Shown piece after piece: positions 1,527 through 53,601 of a stretch of DNA of 64,000 nt. Within the stretch, counting starts at the first letter, position 1; each line of letters begins with the position of its first letter. Below the pieces are notes generated by a model, which saw only the letters and a list, made by a program, of their open reading frames with translations, was not told the DNA's origin and searched no databases. Source of the stretch: a virus. Position numbers and translations under genes: made by a program. Location of the stretch: positions 96,628 to 160,627 of IMG/VR virus record IMGVR_UViG_3300018890_000001; one strand, 5' to 3'.

Positions 1527-1970
1527 TTATTGTTTTGGTTCCGAATCAGGTAGCTTTTCGATCTGCTCTGGAGTTTCTGGCAGTTCTGCTGACGGTGGCT
1601 GACCGGCTAAATGAGTTTCCGACGTGGGAATAGGTTCCGGAGCTGATCCTCCAGAAGCTTCAGGAGCCGGGACAGGTATTAAGTCTTTGGGCAAGAGTGC
1701 CGGAGCATCCAACACGTAAGGATCTTGGGGCGTTACGTTAGCTCCCGACTGTGGTGCTGCTGTATCGACTTGGACTGTGGGAATCGATGACGGTAAATCC
1801 ACAGCAAGTGCTGTTTCACCGGGCTGCTGGTATGCGGGTAGTCCGTGCACGATCGGCGCTACAGGAACTGGAGTTGCCGGAACTTCGGCATGGGGCATAT
1901 CCGGAGTCGTTTCTTCAGGCTGTGCTGCCTGTACGGGATCTTTTTCTGACTTCTGCTCTTCTTCAGGCAT
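1527..1970 (-). CDS. Pro/Glu/Ala-rich low-complexity protein
   Basis: 147-aa ORF with ATG and biased but coding-like composition. Confidence 0.65.
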   Translation of the reverse strand: MPEEEQKSEKDPVQAAQPEETTPDMPHAEVPATPVPVAPIVHGLPAYQQPGETALAVDLPSSIPTVQVDTAAPQSGANVTPQDPYVLDAPALLPKDLIPVPAPEASGGSAPEPIPTSETHLAGQPPSAELPETPEQIEKLPDSEPKQ

Positions 1971-2146
1971 GAATTTTTACCAAAATTTTGAAAGGGAGCG
2001 ATCAAATTATACGTTAAGACGTGACCGCCACTTCAGCGCCTTTGGGCTGAGGAATATCAAATCGGTTGCGGGCGATTGGCAGACTCGACTGACTAGCAAA
2101 AAAAATAACCCGCCCTCAATGGAGAACGGGTCTAAAGTCAAGCTAT

Positions 2147-15075: not shown

Positions 15076-15140
15076 GCTAAAAATAAAAGCCCGCATACTT
15101 GCTTAAGTATGCGGGCTTTTTCGTTGTTGTGGCGATCGGA

Positions 15141-15677: not shown

Positions 15678-15762
15678 TAGATCTGAGTTACAACAACGAC
15701 TACGTTATTATAATACAACAAAAAAGCGTAATACAAAGTTATTTGTATTACGCTTTTACAGA

Positions 15763-17051: not shown

Positions 17052-17099
17052 CATTCAACAAAAAGCCCGCACACTTAATTAAGTGTGTGGGCTTTTTAT

Positions 17100-18077: not shown

Positions 18078-18196
18078 TGGATTGAAAAGTAGCTACATTT
18101 TTAGTGTATGACATTAGATTGTTATACACAATTGATATGCTTGTATTTTAACGCAATTAATATTACAATTTATTTGTAGTTAATTTTCGGAATCCA

Positions 18197-20456: not shown

Positions 20457-21083
20457 ATGCGAGGACTTGTGAAAAGAATAGTTAAATTCAATAGTTGCGA
20501 AGCAGCTAGTAAAGTAGAGCAGCACTTGTACCACGTCGTCCAAGATTTAGATCAATTAAAGTTTTCCGAGTTTGATGAAGCTGCGTTTAAGGCTGCTGTC
20601 GGCTTGGAAGGTTTGACGAGGGCTGATTACAGCTATGTGAGCGACACTGTAATGCCACGCATTGGCATTGGTCTTGCTCCTAGAATGTTCGGACGACCCA
20701 GAATCACACTAGATTTTACGCTTGAAGCGCCCGAGAACCACTATCATCCATTTACGTTAAACGTGTTGCCCGATATTATCGCAATGTCGTCGGAGGGGTA
20801 TGACGAATTTCCATTGGCGATTGACGGTGGATTATTGCATCTGATTCGGATACTTCTAATCACCTTGACTCGTAACAGTGAAGCGAGTAACAAAACGATA
20901 GCGATCGCCACGAGTCTAGAAAGAGCTTGCTTACGGATTGAGACACAGCGATCGCCTCTAACATCTTTCCGCATTGCGCCTATTCGTTATTTTTTAGTGA
21001 TTTGTGGAGCGGGAGATTCTCAGACGCTTGCGCTTAATCTGACCGATGTCGTGCTCAACGTGAACCGCTCAATTTATGAGTAA
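20457..21083 (+). CDS. Hypothetical protein
   Basis: 208-aa ORF; GTAG leader. Confidence 0.75.
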   Translation: MRGLVKRIVKFNSCEAASKVEQHLYHVVQDLDQLKFSEFDEAAFKAAVGLEGLTRADYSYVSDTVMPRIGIGLAPRMFGRPRITLDFTLEAPENHYHPFTLNVLPDIIAMSSEGYDEFPLAIDGGLLHLIRILLITLTRNSEASNKTIAIATSLERACLRIETQRSPLTSFRIAPIRYFLVICGAGDSQTLALNLTDVVLNVNRSIYE

Positions 21084-21168
21084 AACCGTGAAAACCCCAA
21101 ACGCAAAGTCTTTGAAGAGGTGCGTTCAGGGTTGTCACGGGTAGTCGATCTCAGATCCAATCAATCGT
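21083..21168 (-). ncRNA. Candidate anti-leader sRNA (~86 nt)
   Basis: Extended -10 TGTTATGCT (21175-21183); 28-nt single-stranded 5' arm; ~20-bp stem with G:U pairs only on the minus strand; U-tract. Confidence 0.7.
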
Positions 21169-21220
21169 GTTTCAAGCATAACACGACATAGAATTAAATT
21201 ACCGATATTCAAAAAAATAA

Positions 21221-24052
21221 ATGGCGACACCTATATCTAGGGAACTCTACAAGAACTTACCTTATTACTTGCGAATGCTTGATGAGCAAGGATCTGGGAT
21301 GCTTAAGCATCTTACAGATCCAACTCAGACGCAACTAGATAAGTGGACAGATGCCAAGGGGATGATCGAACTAATCGAGAATCCCGACATCATTCCTAAA
21401 AGTTGGGCATATTGGGCGCAGCAAAAAGTTGGTGGTGCCGGTACACGGGAACACTGGCTTGGTATCGGTGTACACCCGGATTGGCCTGTCGAGCGGATGC
21501 GTCGGTTTTTGCTCGAAGGTTGGAACTACTGGAACACCAAAGGTACTCAAAAGTCAATTCGGTGGGCGATCGACTTTTGGCTGGATTGGGAAAAAGCGCA
21601 AAATCCAATTTATCTTGAATTTCGTAGACCGTTTGGCGATCGCCCGACATCCGAACCGACTCAGTGGTGGTCTTATGCGACACCTTATGGCGCGCACACA
21701 ACGCAGCACTATACCGAATTTCAGTTTTGGGGCGGCGGAGATTACCCGCAACAGTATCAACCAGATGCTAGGACTTTACGTCAGGATACGTGGCAGTGGG
21801 ATTTTGAAGCAGTGTGGGACGATCGCCAGCTTGTACTCGATCGCCCACCTGAAATCGACAATTCGAGATCTGGCTTGGGACCGAGAAATGTATGGATGCA
21901 CTTCCACGTCGATGAATTTGAATGGAATAAGGTGGCGCTCGACATTCACAAGCTAAATCCAGAGACTTATCACGTACTTGCCAGACCGCAGGTTTTTCTA
22001 TGGCAAGATATCGAAGTCGATCTGAAGCTTATTGAAGATCCAGATTTCCCGATCGCCAACACGAAAATTCTCTACGATATCGACGGATTCCAGTTCGGTG
22101 ATATTTTTCCGTGGCCAGCAGACCAACTACCACGAACTGAAATCGAAGCCGTGCAAATGGCTTGGCAACCAGAGCCTTACTTTCAGTTCGACGACTGTCT
22201 TGGTGGAGCCGGCGGTGAAATCGTACCCCATTCCGATAGATACAGTTCGGTCGAAGTGCAGCGGTTTTCTGCATACTGGACAGCTTACATTTTTTCAACG
22301 GAAGTAATTAAAATAATTTCCGTTCCGGGCGTATCGACAGAACAAGCTGTAATTCCGACAACTATTTCGGTATCGAACGAACTCGGTCAAGCAATCGTCG
22401 GAATCGAGCTGGAGATTGCAAGTGAGCGCAGCATAGTCATCGGTGCTGACTATCAAACCCTTTACGGATTTGAACCAAATACAGAATCTGTCGTTGAGCG
22501 AACCACACAACTTATTTTTTCGCAGGCGATCGAGTGGTTTACCGATTACCTTGATTGCTTTGGCGGTGACACACCAAGCTTGCCAGGAAATCAGTGGTCT
22601 GCGGGCGATCGTTACGTAGAAGTGGAAATTGTTACGGTAACTGCTCCAAGCCTCGAAGGTCAACCGAGTGAGTTTTGGCAGACCACGACCTTCCGATCGC
22701 CCGCTGACGAACAAATCGAAGTTGTGGAAACAGTCGAATGTCTTGGTTTTAACGGGGCAAATTATACCGACACTTACGCCTGGGATGTTCCGGCAACTTC
22801 GACGCAAAATACCACTACAGCAATTCGATATTTACCGGGTGCAAGTTTTCAAGATTGCTTCACCGAAATCTGGACTTCGACGATCGAGGATATTACGGTT
22901 GTCGAAATTGAGACTCCAGGACGCAGCGGCGCCGGAACTCCTTGGACGATCGCCAGAGGTGCTTGGATCGAAACAGTCGAAGAATTAATACCCGGAATCC
23001 CTGAATTTACAGACCCGGCTACAACACACCTCTGGTACGTAAATTACCGAGAGTGGACCGAAGAAGTCGAAATTGAGATTCCGGGTGTTCAAAGTTGTTG
23101 GTCGGGATTGCTGGCGGATGTTACGACAGAATTTCAAGAAATACAAATCCCAGCAGAACCTGGATTTCCGCCGCTGCTCTGGGGTGATATTTCCCCCGAC
23201 ACCCAAACAATTACCACAACCCCAGGTAGTCCCGGCAGTGTCGGCATCGACTTTCAATCTCCTTATCTTGGTTTTGGACTACCACAATCGATCGCCCATG
23301 ACGTTGCACCGATTTCACTAGATGGAATTGCGTTCCTGACAATGGATCTCAGTCCGCAGTTACCGACTACTTTTAATCCCAGTGTTGTCTATGACTTATT
23401 TGCAGGCGAAGATCAAAGTCTCAACTCCGAAGACTGGTGGCAGTACCCAGGAAAACAGTCCGTGGACACCGTTGTTGCCGATGTCGGGGGATTCCGCCTC
23501 GACAAGCCACAGTTATGTTTCCAATATCTCGACACCTACGGTCAAAATCTTGAATGGTACGCTTACGGTATACCCACCGAAGCGGATACCCGGATTGAAC
23601 CGATCGCACAGCATTACAACTTATGCAACGTTGTCGATAACTACACGCTAAGCAAAATTGAAAACTGGCGCGAGATTACAGATTCGATACCAGAGTCTGA
23701 ACTGGCGATCGAGAAAACATACCCGATACTACAACAAGTCGCAAAACAGCAATCTTGGACGCTTTCAGTTGAAACCGATGAAGAGTTGCTACTCGTCGAA
23801 CCGTTGGTGATTTTTACAGAAAAAGATGGCGAGCGTTCACTGGCGATCGAGTTAGATCGAAAACTCAATCTCGAATTCGTATTTATTGTGGGGCGGTTTA
23901 CACACATCAGATCGATCTCTTTGTTTGTCGGACACGAGATCGTTGAAAGCAAAACTTATGCGATTCCGCTTAACGTACATCCTAGAGATAAGATTGGCTT
24001 TAAGTTTTTATTGAGTTTAGTTCCGCAACCTGTAACAGCTTTACCTGTGTAA
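21221..24052 (+). CDS. Tail/baseplate protein (phage tail protein I-like N-terminus, long acidic Trp/Pro/Thr-rich body)
   Basis: LYKNLPYYLRMLDEQG, NPDIIP..W..WA.Q..G, RRFL.....WNTKGT..SIR. Confidence 0.7.
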   Translation: MATPISRELYKNLPYYLRMLDEQGSGMLKHLTDPTQTQLDKWTDAKGMIELIENPDIIPKSWAYWAQQKVGGAGTREHWLGIGVHPDWPVERMRRFLLEGWNYWNTKGTQKSIRWAIDFWLDWEKAQNPIYLEFRRPFGDRPTSEPTQWWSYATPYGAHTTQHYTEFQFWGGGDYPQQYQPDARTLRQDTWQWDFEAVWDDRQLVLDRPPEIDNSRSGLGPRNVWMHFHVDEFEWNKVALDIHKLNPETYHVLARPQVFLWQDIEVDLKLIEDPDFPIANTKILYDIDGFQFGDIFPWPADQLPRTEIEAVQMAWQPEPYFQFDDCLGGAGGEIVPHSDRYSSVEVQRFSAYWTAYIFSTEVIKIISVPGVSTEQAVIPTTISVSNELGQAIVGIELEIASERSIVIGADYQTLYGFEPNTESVVERTTQLIFSQAIEWFTDYLDCFGGDTPSLPGNQWSAGDRYVEVEIVTVTAPSLEGQPSEFWQTTTFRSPADEQIEVVETVECLGFNGANYTDTYAWDVPATSTQNTTTAIRYLPGASFQDCFTEIWTSTIEDITVVEIETPGRSGAGTPWTIARGAWIETVEELIPGIPEFTDPATTHLWYVNYREWTEEVEIEIPGVQSCWSGLLADVTTEFQEIQIPAEPGFPPLLWGDISPDTQTITTTPGSPGSVGIDFQSPYLGFGLPQSIAHDVAPISLDGIAFLTMDLSPQLPTTFNPSVVYDLFAGEDQSLNSEDWWQYPGKQSVDTVVADVGGFRLDKPQLCFQYLDTYGQNLEWYAYGIPTEADTRIEPIAQHYNLCNVVDNYTLSKIENWREITDSIPESELAIEKTYPILQQVAKQQSWTLSVETDEELLLVEPLVIFTEKDGERSLAIELDRKLNLEFVFIVGRFTHIRSISLFVGHEIVESKTYAIPLNVHPRDKIGFKFLLSLVPQPVTALPV

Positions 24053-30128: not shown

Positions 30129-30374
30129 TTAGTTAAGGTCAGGAGTTTCTATCTTTCCTGCGTAATCGCCTGCACGATCGAAGAGGCTTCCATCTTTGTG
30201 CATTGTTACTTCTTTACCGTAATCTCTGAGATTCCGAGCAAGGCATTCTTCGCTTGCTCTGTCGTAATAATTCGTTCCTTTTCCTTGTACTTTTCCTATT
30301 TTTTTGCTTTTTTTCGTTGCGGTGTTTAGGATATACCAAAAATTTGATGAAGTGTTTAGATTTACGATCCACAT
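30129..30374 (-). CDS. Hypothetical protein
   Basis: Promoter, AAGG SD, flanked by palindromic terminators. Confidence 0.7.
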   Translation of the reverse strand: MWIVNLNTSSNFWYILNTATKKSKKIGKVQGKGTNYYDRASEECLARNLRDYGKEVTMHKDGSLFDRAGDYAGKIETPDLN

Positions 30375-30762: not shown

Positions 30763-30957
30763 TTTACAACACAGTAAAGATCATATGCTTATATTAAAGG
30801 AAAATTAGCTTCTCGTCAAGTTATCACCGATCGCCCGCAATAGATAATCTAATCAGGAAGTATTGAAATCTTACATCAGCATTCGTGATTAATTGAGTGA
30901 TGATGTAACTGGAGTTATATAATTGATCTAATCAATCGTAAGTAGTGGATCGATCTA

Positions 30958-39793: not shown

Positions 39794-39888
39794 GTGATTG
39801 TGGAGCTATTTAAACTACATCTAAATTTTATCATAAAAACACCCCTTATACAAATGAATAGTCTGTATAAGGGGTGTTGATTTAATTG

Positions 39889-40314
39889 CTAAATACGATA
39901 AATGGGGTGCGCGCCAGCTTGGATAAGTCTGGGACGTTTCACGCCAATCTCGTTACCGATCGCCTCTAAGATATTTTCGATATCAGTAGAAGCCAGCGGA
40001 TGTTTAATCGATTCGCCTTTCTGGTATTCCCATGAAATCCCCATATTTGCAAACGCAGCACGCACTGCTTCACCAACCGAGGCACTGGCTGTATTACCAC
40101 CTCTGGCATTGCTTTGCAAATATACATCACTTAATTCAATCTTTACGGTTATGGCACAGTAATAATCTGTTCGACCTTGAAATACTTCTAGTCTAATCGC
40201 TTCAATTTCTTGAGAGCAGTCAAACCAGATTATCGTGGTCAACAATTTGTCACTAACTCTACCGTTTTTTGAATTTGTGAACAAACCTTGACGGTGTTGT
40301 AACGAAGCTTTCAT
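39889..40314 (-). CDS. Tandem family protein copy 2
   Basis: DC..E.IRL....YYC..., AF...GIS, AI...G..R. Confidence 0.8.
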   Translation of the reverse strand: MKASLQHRQGLFTNSKNGRVSDKLLTTIIWFDCSQEIEAIRLEVFQGRTDYYCAITVKIELSDVYLQSNARGGNTASASVGEAVRAAFANMGISWEYQKGESIKHPLASTDIENILEAIGNEIGVKRPRLIQAGAHPIYRI

Positions 40315-40429
40315 GTAATTGATTTATCGAAACTACATATTTAGTTTATCATTAATGTATTTGTAAGTCACGTAATTTAACACAAAAAATAACCCCACAC
40401 GAGAATAGTTTATGCGTGTGGGGTTCTTT

Positions 40430-40819
40430 TTAGCGGTTCGCGTCTACGCTATGTATGTACCACCTTTCTACTTCTGTGGCGCTTGCCATTGCGTTAATAG
40501 CGGGTTTGATTGATTCAAGCATTCGATAATCATAATCTGGTTCTGGAGGTAAACTGTCAAAACGTATATTCGCGTTAGCCAATGCTTGGCAAAAAGCGTC
40601 AAAGCGGCTATCTCCCTTACCACTGGTAGTCAAATCCATTACACCATCCTCAATCCAGATACAGCAGTAATACACAGCTCCTTTTTTGTAAAGGTCTAGA
40701 CGTATTAACTGCTCTTGTTTGTCGCAATCAATGACAACGCATTGTCCGATCAGACTATTGTCCGGTCTGTGTGCAGATTTAAGTGAACGTGCAAACTTGT
40801 TGACGTACTCGACTTTCAT
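40430..40819 (-). CDS. Tandem family protein copy 3
   Basis: IDCD...RLDLYKKG..YYCCIWI...SGKG.SRF. Confidence 0.85.
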   Translation of the reverse strand: MKVEYVNKFARSLKSAHRPDNSLIGQCVVIDCDKQEQLIRLDLYKKGAVYYCCIWIEDGVMDLTTSGKGDSRFDAFCQALANANIRFDSLPPEPDYDYRMLESIKPAINAMASATEVERWYIHSVDANR

Positions 40820-40936
40820 GAGATTGATTTATCTGAGACTACACATTTATTTTATCATTGATGTATTCGTAAGTCACGCAATTTAACACAAAAAAAAGAA
40901 CCTACATAAACTAATGTGGGTTCTTTTTTACTTATT

Positions 40937-41347
40937 TTAATTGGAGCGCATACAGTGATGTATGTAAGGTCTTTCTGCTCCCGCAGCTTCAGCAATTGCC
41001 GTGAAGACGTATTCTAGTTTATCCCAAACCTGAATGTCGAAATTACTTCCGAGTTCGGGCAACGGGTGCTCGAAAGAGATGTCTGCGCTGTCTAGTGCAG
41101 CATAAACAGCACCAAAACGACTGTTAGCTTTGCCACTACCAGTTATATCGACTTCCTGTTTGTCTGCCCAGCCTCTGATCCAAATACAGCAGTAATAACT
41201 TTTTTCCCCTTTCTTGTAAAGATCTACACGAACAGGTTCTTTTTTACGATCACAGTCGATCGCCACTAATTGTCCTGCTAAGTGCGCATGGTGGATATGG
41301 CTGGAATTGATTTCTCTGTGAATACAACTTGCAAAAGATGCTTTCAT
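40937..41347 (-). CDS. Tandem family protein copy 4
   Basis: IDCD...RVDLYKKG..YYCCIWI...SGKA.SRF. Confidence 0.85.
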   Translation of the reverse strand: MKASFASCIHREINSSHIHHAHLAGQLVAIDCDRKKEPVRVDLYKKGEKSYYCCIWIRGWADKQEVDITGSGKANSRFGAVYAALDSADISFEHPLPELGSNFDIQVWDKLEYVFTAIAEAAGAERPYIHHCMRSN

Positions 41348-41377
41348 ACAATTGATTTGTCTGAGACTACTTCTTTA

Positions 41378-43702: not shown

Positions 43703-43801
43703 TATTAAAACCTCTAGAGTTTTCTGGAGGTTTTTTTGTGTTTGACTTGTTTGTATAGAAATATTATGCGATAATAATTACATCCAATCAATAGAAATAT
43801 C

Positions 43802-47076: not shown

Positions 47077-47131
47077 AGACTGATTGTCTACAAAAAAGCC
47101 CCGTTACTGAATTCAGTAACGGGGCTTTTTA

Positions 47132-49294: not shown

Positions 49295-49306
49295 GTTCGT
49301 ATTAAG

Positions 49307-49369
49307 AAAGACTACTCTATTATTATACTATATATAATGTATCTGTAGTATAATAATAGAGTAGTCTTT
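49307..49369. promoter_or_regulatory. Perfect 24-bp inverted repeat forming twin divergent promoters
   Basis: AAAGACTACTCTATTATTATACTA-15-TAGTATAATAATAGAGTAGTCTTT. Confidence 0.9.
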
Positions 49370-49381
49370 TAAGGATCGATC

Positions 49382-51727: not shown

Positions 51728-51765
51728 AAAAAGCCCCGCAGGGTATTAATCCTGCGGGGCTTCTT
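51728..51765. terminator. Palindromic terminator; inverted copy at 52206-52243
   Basis: AAGCCCCGCAGG gtattaat CCTGCGGGGCTT. Confidence 0.9.
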
Positions 51766-51802
51766 TGTGTTTTCAATCAATTACTCAGTATCTTACAAAT
51801 AG

Positions 51803-52205: not shown

Positions 52206-52243
52206 TAAAAAGCCCCGCAGGATTAATACCCTGCGGGGCTTTT
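52206..52243. terminator. Palindromic terminator; inverted copy of 51728-51765
   Basis: AAGCCCCGCAGG attaatac CCTGCGGGGCTT. Confidence 0.9.
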
Positions 52244-52245
52244 TA

Positions 52246-53490
52246 TTATTTAACTTTAGGTTTGGTAACGGGTAGTTCTAGTTTTTCGACTAAGTAGTCA
52301 AAAATGCGCTCATCTGCACCAGAAGTTATTACCTTCCCCTGCGTGTTCAGTACGCCAATGCCACCAACTTCAAGCCAATCAGCATTGGCTTTAGTCCAGT
52401 CTATTAATGAAAGTTTTTGCAAAATGGCAAGTTTACCTTCACCTAAAGGTTCTGTGGTCGGCATAAACACACTTTCCAACTTACCGATCGCCTTGACAGT
52501 AATTGCGTGTGTGGCGATCGTCTCCCGTCTGACTATGACAGGATCTTGTTCCCAGTCTTTCATGACTTGAGAAATAGCGCGCCAATACTGACGAACTACT
52601 CGTTTTTGTTCGTCTATGGGGCTGTGCTTAATGTGTTTGCGAGAGAACTCGATCGCCTCCTGCAATGTTTTGTACGGGAAAATCTTTTCGCTTTTCCCAG
52701 TTATTGATGGTTTGCCGTATTCAATGCAATCTTGAGAAAATACGGAAATGCGATCGTCGTGATCTTGAGCGATAATGTGGGACACGAGGTGCGTCCCCGG
52801 ATTGCGGTGATCCATCGATTTCGATAGACCTGTTGAAACCCGCGTTTGCTCTTCATTGATATCGCGAAACGCTTGTCTGCGGGCAATCACGCCGTCAATC
52901 TTGTAAAGTGTAGCCGTGATATATTCATCAGCTAGCGTCGGGTCTTCTCGCAAAGCGAGATTTAGACCAAGCAGGCGATGTTGTCCATCTAGAGGAAACA
53001 GTTTTGTTCCCTCGTGTAAGCAAAGTTCACCGTATCGTCCACCAACTTCAAAGAAGTCAAATCCGCCTTGAATCACAATTGTGACTGCGGGAAGAATATG
53101 CGATGTCCTGTTTGCTAACAAGTAAACAGAGAGTTTTTTGACTTTCGGTCCTTTAACCTCACGTTGAATACGCTCCGGTTGCGGAACATTTTTTTCTGCA
53201 AATGTCAGTAGTTCTGAAAGATCACCAATTTTTAGCTGAACTGCATAAAATTCGCGGTCTGCCTGGATGCCTTTTAGTGCATCAAACTTTATCCAACATG
53301 GTTGGCTGGCGATCGGTTCGATCTGCTCTTCACCTATTATGGGTTTAGCAAATTCGACTGGTGTTTCCTCTTGAGAGGCATCTAACTGCTTTTGAGCTTC
53401 TGCTAGAGACTTCAACACGCCTGGTTTGGAGGAGGGCGAAGCTTTACTCGCGGGAGTCACCGATTTACTAGAACTTTTTTTGATTGACAT
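52246..53490 (-). CDS. DndB-like DGQHR-domain protein
   Basis: ERIQREV, ILPAVT, LDGQHR, RQAFRDINE. Confidence 0.85.
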   Translation of the reverse strand: MSIKKSSSKSVTPASKASPSSKPGVLKSLAEAQKQLDASQEETPVEFAKPIIGEEQIEPIASQPCWIKFDALKGIQADREFYAVQLKIGDLSELLTFAEKNVPQPERIQREVKGPKVKKLSVYLLANRTSHILPAVTIVIQGGFDFFEVGGRYGELCLHEGTKLFPLDGQHRLLGLNLALREDPTLADEYITATLYKIDGVIARRQAFRDINEEQTRVSTGLSKSMDHRNPGTHLVSHIIAQDHDDRISVFSQDCIEYGKPSITGKSEKIFPYKTLQEAIEFSRKHIKHSPIDEQKRVVRQYWRAISQVMKDWEQDPVIVRRETIATHAITVKAIGKLESVFMPTTEPLGEGKLAILQKLSLIDWTKANADWLEVGGIGVLNTQGKVITSGADERIFDYLVEKLELPVTKPKVK

Positions 53491-53601
53491 AAATGGAACT
53501 TATTGATCGACTACATTTATATTTATATTATTAGGTGGATATATTCAAGCAAAAAGAAACCCACCAAACCAATTAATTTAATTGGTTTGGTGGGTTTCTT
53601 T

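Follow-up and report, generated by a model that had tools for sequence, protein, structure and literature searches.

Phage temporal programs are usually attributed to proteins, such as sigma factors, anti-sigma factors, repressors, and modifiers of RNA polymerase. The phage regulatory RNAs described so far each act, to our knowledge, on one gene or one operon. The CI RNA of P4 is an RNA immunity factor that recognizes repeated complementary sites in early transcripts and stops early expression. In bacterial hosts, GcvB is an Hfq-dependent small RNA (sRNA) with multiple, functionally related targets. The c4 antisense RNA acts in the immunity region of P1 and P7, and lambda OOP and P22 sar are short cis-antisense phage RNAs that have their own promoters and terminators and regulate phage development (PMC12197685). 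Here, we analyze a candidate sRNA gene on the minus strand of a 64,000-nucleotide (nt) stretch (termed the window) that covers bases 96,628 to 160,627 of the 199,763-bp IMG/VR virus record IMGVR_UViG_3300018890_000001 (termed G000). The original prediction held that this RNA is antisense to a 5' leader shared by about 28 genes of the phage and silences the whole early and antidefense regulon. We found that comparative evidence supports a minus-strand RNA with an antileader arm, and that silencing of the whole regulon claims too much, because only a fraction of the leaders offer extended pairing.

Read 5' to 3' on the minus strand, the unit starts with an extended -10 box, TGTTATGCT (21175 to 21183), which has no match to a -35 element. 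Six bases separate this box from a 28-nt, mostly unpaired 5' arm, 5'-ACGAUUGAUUGGAUCUGAGAUCGACUAC (21141 to 21168, i.e., the complement of 21168 to 21141), which we call the antileader arm. The transcription start site is predicted to be the A at 21168, 7 nt past the -10 box. The arm is followed by a hairpin (21086 to 21140) of 19 to 20 bp, whose 15-nt loop contains a ministem of 3 bp, and by UUUU (21082 to 21085), the likely 3' end, which overlaps the TAA stop codon of a convergent open reading frame (ORF) of 208 amino acids (aa). All of these elements were thus found where the original prediction had placed them. In the window, the minus-strand hairpin forms 19 of 20 pairs, including two G:U pairs (-29.4 kcal/mol), whereas on the plus strand the G:U positions become A.C mismatches (-25.5 kcal/mol). 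A 90-nt minus-strand RNA folds at -33.4 kcal/mol (z = -5.7 versus shuffled sequences) with the arm largely open. Positions 21081 to 21183 thus probably form an autonomous sRNA gene, from which an RNA of about 88 nt would be made at the extended -10 promoter and would end at the long hairpin and UUUU.

The candidate sRNA belongs to no described family. A search of the window against Rfam gave 0 matches at the gathering score and, with E values of up to 10, chance-level eukaryotic families only. There is one copy of the unit per genome, as nhmmer found no second copy in either G000 or the genome of a related phage, G001. The 26-nt arm sequence was not found in 185,579 species genomes, and a DNA-pattern search of IMG/VR returned a known relative only. 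Another match from the IMG/VR patterns (L028) lies in a GC-rich coding region and was rejected as a chance match.

We then compared homologous loci (designated by L-numbers; W is the window locus), which were recovered from IMG/VR, JGI, NCBI, ENA, and Logan assemblies with the N terminus of the 943-aa protein encoded by the adjacent putative tail gene. Eight distinct close relatives, with 81 to 89% protein identity, carry the element; the close set comprises W, L004 (identical to L005), L006 (identical to L036), L007 (identical to L002 and located within G001), L008, L029, L030, L031, and L032. A diverged form is present in L033 (73% protein identity). In a nine-locus alignment, we examined a minus-strand helix of 19 pairs plus the 3-bp apical stem. 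It was paired in 99% of cells, with seven pairs changed on both sides, compared to 24 to 55% in slid controls; none of 500 column shuffles equaled it, a count that is not a probability since the rows are few and related. The double-sided changes fall at the same columns, with such alternatives as GUGA/UCAC, AAG/CUU, ACA/UGU, and AGG/UCU. Five columns contain G:U pairs, amounting to 25 cells that pair on the minus strand only and read A.C or C.A on the plus strand, whereas no cell pairs on the plus strand only. The claim that the G:U pairs of the stem exist on the minus strand alone is thus borne out across the nine loci. One column passes through A-U, G:U, and G-C, a compensatory path that is available only on the minus strand.

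The minus-strand hairpins are uninterrupted in every phage (-29.4 to -31.4 kcal/mol), whereas the plus-strand hairpins are interrupted (-20.5 to -26.7 kcal/mol), and four U residues follow the minus-strand stem in eight of eight close relatives. The covariation, together with G:U pairs that are confined to the minus strand, shows that the helix has been selected as a minus-strand RNA and not as a plus-strand leader. Hence, the unit is very probably a minus-strand RNA gene. The apical half of the hairpin (CCCUGAACGCACCUCUUCAAAGA; 21106 to 21128) is as invariant as the arm in eight phages. The hairpin loop, CACCUCUUC, resembles what we take to be the anti-Shine-Dalgarno sequence at the 3' end of 16S rRNA. 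The apical loop might serve as a second seed; its 8-mer matches were scattered, with no pattern at gene starts.

The candidate promoter is also conserved. W, L006, L007, L032, L033, L009, and L034 all retain TGnTAnnnT, 6 nt, and (A/G)CG(A/G)AU in this order despite divergence of the flanks. The box reads TGTTATGCT in W, L004, L006, and L029 to L031, TGTTATAGT in L007 and L008, TGCTAGCAT in L032, TGCTATCCT in L033, TGCTACCAT in L009, and TGTTAAAAT in L034; TG, A2, and T6 are constant, and the variation falls on the weaker positions.

The unit occurs in four gene contexts. In W, L029, and L030, it converges on the 208-aa gene and diverges from the tail gene; it lies downstream of a different plus-strand gene and two terminators in L007 and L008; and it adjoins a divergent 229-aa gene and a terminator in L004, L006, and L031. 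In L009, it is located 1 kb from the tail gene, with a homolog of the 229-aa gene in between, which argues for its autonomy, and it is again convergent with a homolog of the 208-aa ORF. As judged from the sequences, this comparison shows the autonomy of the unit, which is not tied to one gene context. Almost every base of the L009 copy (1958 to 2070, minus strand) has diverged, and the copy still consists of TGCTACCAT, 6 nt, a 38-nt arm ending in CGACUAC, and a perfect 19-bp hairpin; its RNA folds at -39 kcal/mol (z = -6.8). Directly before this copy lies the stop codon of a minus-strand gene that encodes 250 aa. In L033, AACGACUAC is kept next to the hairpin.

The arm stands out by its conservation in the eight close phages, where 26 of 27 columns are invariant and the single change is in L032. 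By comparison, invariant columns make up 62% of the initial 900 nt in the adjacent gene (25% at third positions), and the longest invariant run in that coding sequence is 11 in 906 columns. The arm is identical between G000 and G001, while 11 orthologous leaders of the family described below are 50 to 82% identical past GTAGT (mean, 66%). This comparison shows an arm under very strong sequence constraint. In L007 (positions 2934 to 2951) and L008, the UCAGAUnnAAUCAAUC module of the arm is duplicated in tandem over 18 nt, a behavior that would be expected of a pairing module. In L004 (226 to 267) and L030 to L032, about 42 nt are inserted, which include a separate -10-like box (TACAAT or TAAAAT) and part of a second GGUUAAUUGG module. 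The RNA can therefore be expanded in its 5' part, by duplication in two phages and by insertion in four others.

The leader that the arm resembles in reverse complement belongs to a promoter family composed of a -35 element, N17, TATAAT, N6, GTAGT(C/T), N15-21, and ATG. About 25 to 28 copies are present in the window, so the shared leader of the original prediction is real, and a strict filter retained 48 members in G000. In G001, 25 matches to TATAAT-N6-GTAGT were found versus 5 for the control pattern, and the filter retained 24. Members in the window fall within 2440 to 53514 (for example, 14217, 16421, 18176, 18730, 19381, 24075, 24884, 28433, 30012, 39818 to 41370, 41914, 46506, 46625, 49315, and 49361), and others are found in G000 outside the window. 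GTAGTC alone is common, the whole genome containing 389 occurrences of GTAGT. The leaders are short (about 20 to 26 nt) and mostly lack GGAG-type ribosome sites. The individual matches to the arm that had been listed in the original prediction are all real: GTAGTCGATC at 53514, GTAGTCTCAGA(T/C)AAATCAAT at 40842 and 41370, the match at 43781 to 43795, CTCAGATCTAATG at 15703, ATCCAATG at 18176 and 46506, and GATCTAATCAATCGT on the plus strand upstream of a helicase-like gene (30925 to 30939; 14 of 15 positions match the arm complement, and the mismatch is a G:U). Predicted duplexes on example minus-strand targets reach -22.4 kcal/mol for the leader GTAGTCTCAGATAAATCAATCTC (40820 to 40842, before an ATG) and the same value for its paralog at 41348 to 41370, and -25.1 kcal/mol for the leader GTAGTCGTTGTTGTAACTCAGATCTA (15678 to 15703, before an ATG).

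The helicase-like gene (30918 to 30957) has TATAAT, 18 nt containing GATCTAATCAATCGT, and a GTAGT located 11 nt before the ATG, an atypical leader in that the arm-like motif lies upstream of GTAGT. The region from 49300 to 49380 holds divergent GTAGT promoters (49315, minus; 49361, plus) in a near-perfect palindrome with TATAATAATAGAGTAGTCTTT on both strands, and G001 has the same divergent pair at 30214/30261.

We evaluated the complementarity between the arm and the leaders with duplexfold, which allows loops and ignores accessibility. The real arm gave a mean of -16.0 kcal/mol against the 48 leaders, compared to -9.8 ± 0.8 kcal/mol for 300 dinucleotide-shuffled arms (best, -13.6), and its pairing energies thus exceed those of shuffled controls, as had been predicted. 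The same arm gave -10.1 kcal/mol against random genomic segments, -8.9 kcal/mol against 122 ORF starts without GTAGT, and -9.4 kcal/mol against the reverse complements of the leaders. Repeating the comparison in G001 yielded -17.7 versus -11.8 (p = 1e-10). The 5-mers most enriched in the leaders, apart from those containing ATG, are AATCA (13 leaders versus 1.2 expected), TCAAT, ATCAA, CTCAG, TCAGA, AGATC, ATCCA, and CAATC, and the arm complement contains all eight. Beyond GTAGTC, at least 7 contiguous Watson-Crick pairs are possible with 12 of the 48 leaders versus 2.2% of random segments, and at least 6 with 19 of the 48 versus 8.3%.

When the antisense of each of the 48 real leaders was used as a pseudoarm, the mean was -11.0 ± 1.9 (best, -14.7), and the real arm surpassed all of them; it was also stronger than the antisense of each of 88 other GTAGTC 28-mers (best, -14.3). 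The arm is thus nearer to the consensus than any real leader, which is consistent with selection for many targets and speaks against a fossil leader. These comparisons show an arm that, by its predicted pairing, is optimized towards the leader consensus.

We propose that the arm acts as a G/U-rich mirror of the short, Shine-Dalgarno-poor leaders made from TATAAT-N6-GTAGT promoters. The GACUAC adjacent to the hairpin would pair with the 5'-terminal GUAGUC of the leader mRNAs, and GAUUGAUUGGAUCUGA would pair with the C/A-rich UCAGAU...AAUCAAU just upstream of the AUG, giving GACUAC/GUAGUC and GAUUGAUU/AAUCAAUC as the predicted partner segments. Such pairing would mask the region of ribosome loading as well as the 5' end and would therefore lower the translation or the stability of some transcripts, and the subset affected would amount to about a quarter to a half of those of the GTAGT class. 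That the RNA is made, pairs in vivo, and represses its targets is inferred from the sequence. That leader pairing is the function of the RNA strikes us as just as likely true as false. The stronger proposal is of a master RNA that reads GUAGUC at +1 together with a C/A-rich element before the AUG, so that a large share of about 50 early or antidefense units would be shut down without a protein repressor and the temporal switch would reside in the shared leader. We find this dual reading by a master RNA doubtful, and silencing of most of the regulon as a master switch is, in our opinion, similarly improbable.

Several observations weigh against this proposal. The candidate promoter is without a -35 element, and a scan for consensus -35/-10 sigma-70 promoters finds nothing here; similarly, with only four U residues and an unusually long stem and loop, the terminator is missed by a simple scan. 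Duplexfold energies that allow loops and leave out accessibility rank candidates and do not prove binding. The 6-mer GTAGTC supplies much of the energy excess: when GTAGTC and GACUAC were removed from the two partners, a modest excess was left (-9.3 versus -7.7; p = 0.003), and the value for non-GTAGT starts was -6.9 (p = 6e-5). A long contiguous match is missing in most leaders, as only about 25 to 40% offer, outside GTAGTC, at least 6 to 7 contiguous pairs. The few promoters on the short L009 and L034 loci start with GTAAC or GTACC and not with GTAGT, which we regard as neutral to mildly unfavorable for a covariation of arm and leaders; the L034 protein had no match in IMG/VR. The target model leaves the invariant apical half of the hairpin unexplained, a hint at a second function. 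Finally, complementarity alone cannot separate an antileader from a sequence that descends from a leader.

One alternative is that the minus-strand RNA is real and has a different job, be it on host mRNAs, on a protein through the apical loop, or in cis on plus-strand RNA that reads through from the gene for the 208-aa protein towards and into the tail gene. Its resemblance to the leaders would then reflect descent from a leader or shared local composition. We judge this to be rather unlikely, although a pure seed-plus-terminator model has no need of an apical half as constant as the arm, most leaders offer short matches only, and the starts of the promoters near the diverged copies in L009 and L034 differ from GTAGT. 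For the cis version, the hairpin marks the end of the upstream plus-strand gene in W, L029, and L030, so a read-through RNA would be perfectly complementary to the sRNA. However, the element is also kept where plus-strand transcripts do not read in, either because the neighbor is divergent (L004, L006, and L031) or because two terminators lie upstream (L007 and L008). Descent alone is insufficient to account for an arm that is far more conserved than real leaders. The arm also outdoes the antisense of every one of them, and the hairpin-adjacent CGACUAC survives in L033 and L009 amid general divergence. Another reading, in which the arm is the orphan leader of a lost gene that lies without function beside an ordinary terminator, is in our view very improbable. 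The plus strand of the arm does resemble a leader, with a GTG and a frame of 4 codons after it, and GTAGTC is frequent in the genome, but 26 of 27 arm columns are invariant while real leaders show 66% identity, no -10 box lies upstream, and the unit persists in four contexts and in diverged forms.

Alternatively, the element could belong to the tail gene, as a structured 5' leader on the plus strand or as an operator-like site in the DNA, to which a phage protein that reads GTAGTC...AATCAAT at +1 to +25 would also bind here and control the divergent promoters. The linkage to the 5' side of the tail gene in most relatives is consistent with this, and a motif that keeps its place at +1 in about 50 promoters would be a natural DNA signal; the -10 boxes beside the element stand back to back and are accompanied by a small inverted repeat, and a tandem duplication would suit an operator as well. 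We nevertheless consider it quite unlikely. Only as a minus-strand RNA can the helix pair in all sequences (25 G:U cells versus 0), no plus-strand promoter was found upstream of the hairpin, which is preceded by two terminators in L007 and L008, and in L009 another gene intervenes between the unit and the tail gene. An operator would have no need of a covarying RNA helix that abuts it at a fixed phase. A DNA-level reading is possible but less economical for a motif that is held in fixed phase, with a conserved promoter on one side and the covarying helix of the minus strand on the other.

Three other interpretations of the locus were considered and rejected. The hairpin is not an intrinsic terminator of the upstream plus-strand gene, since its plus-strand stem contains the A.C mismatches and is followed by GGTAGTCGATC instead of a T-run. 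A plus-strand transcription start at the GTAG at 21141, which would make the arm an orphan GTAGT leader, is unsupported, as no homolog has a TAnnnT 5 to 7 nt upstream; in all of them, the upstream sequence (GGTTGTCACGG, GGCTTCTTGAG, and similar) is the 3' arm of the covarying helix. Moreover, the ATG of the 943-aa ORF lies 80 nt from the GTAGT (expected, 11 to 28), and only a 4-codon GTG frame follows the arm. A small plus-strand GTG ORF over the arm was dismissed because its ends differ in the relatives, a usable ribosome site is missing, and the 5' arm of the helix, which covaries, lies outside the frame.

The sRNA candidate sits in a 137-nt gap that separates two plus-strand ORFs. The 208-aa ORF (20457 to 21083; stop codon TAA at 21081 to 21083) is located upstream and is convergent with the candidate, and the 943-aa ORF (21221 to 24052) is located downstream and is divergent from it. 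Neither protein had a sequence match in Pfam, PHROG, NCBIfam, or PDB. No relative of the 208-aa protein was found in IMG/VR, and the 943-aa protein was absent from the species-genome search. The N terminus of the latter gave an Atlas lead to Tail_P2_I (score, 0.90; TM, 0.37 to 0.42), which, as a lead only, would fit a P2 gpI-like tail/baseplate or fiber protein. Its ORFan family has 12 homologs of variable length (833 to 1042 aa), in which the Trp-rich N terminus is conserved. A 6-kb blastn search against GenBank phages gave no match, and a search for tRNA and tmRNA found none. GCGATCGC, a repeat characteristic of cyanobacterial DNA, is abundant in the window.

Between the candidate sRNA and the tail gene, an inverted repeat, CGTGTT-N8-AACACG (21166 to 21185), overlaps the -10 box and the predicted start site of the sRNA; its arms are invariant, and its loop is variable, without covariation. 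A -10-like TAGAAT (21189 to 21194, plus strand) is the putative promoter box of the 943-aa gene and is located 8 bp from the sRNA -10 box. All relatives, including L032 and L033, have TA(G/A)(A/G)AT at the same place, 7 to 8 bp from the sRNA box. The minus-strand TATGCT and the plus-strand TAGAAT are thus placed back to back, with the inverted repeat overlapping both (21166 to 21194). Since RNA polymerase could probably not occupy both boxes at once, this arrangement may act as a switch that selects either the sRNA or the tail gene. Elsewhere in the window, near-identical GC-stem terminators, bidirectional by virtue of their A-runs and T-runs, are found at 15085 to 15121, 17061 to 17097, 47094 to 47130, 51728 to 51772, and 52207 to 52251, and these families bear very little resemblance to the long sRNA hairpin.

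If the antileader model is true, this phage would possess a regulon-wide, protein-free switch, and the model would explain why the leaders share more than a promoter. One 88-nt RNA and a set of short leaders would then provide a handle on gene regulation in uncultured phages. Even without the target model, the locus represents a new, well-supported structured RNA family with covariation.

Among phage RNAs, P1 c4 and P4 CI appear to be the closest in spirit to the candidate. Like c4, it would be a structured small RNA encoded by a phage and would pair in trans, through exposed segments, with phage mRNA where ribosomes load, providing protein-free control of antihost and early functions. However, c4 is processed from the operon of its single target, icd-ant, at which it has two matched sites, whereas the candidate has its own putative promoter and terminator, is present as a single copy, directs its seed to the consensus of dozens of dispersed leaders, and matches no Rfam family. 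In P4, the sites are confined to one operon, where recognition leads to premature termination, while those proposed here are spread over many separate transcription units, at the 5' end of each. OOP and sar overlap a single target gene, to which they are fully complementary; no conserved plus-strand transcript overlaps the candidate, which is preserved in form across four gene contexts. In their working mode, GcvB-type sRNAs are the closest match, combining a G/U-rich single-stranded seed, a C/A-rich element upstream of the start codons of many mRNAs, and a 3' terminator hairpin. Compared to GcvB, the candidate sRNA is encoded by a phage, and its targets would be defined by their promoter class, with the very 5' end of the mRNA included in the pairing.

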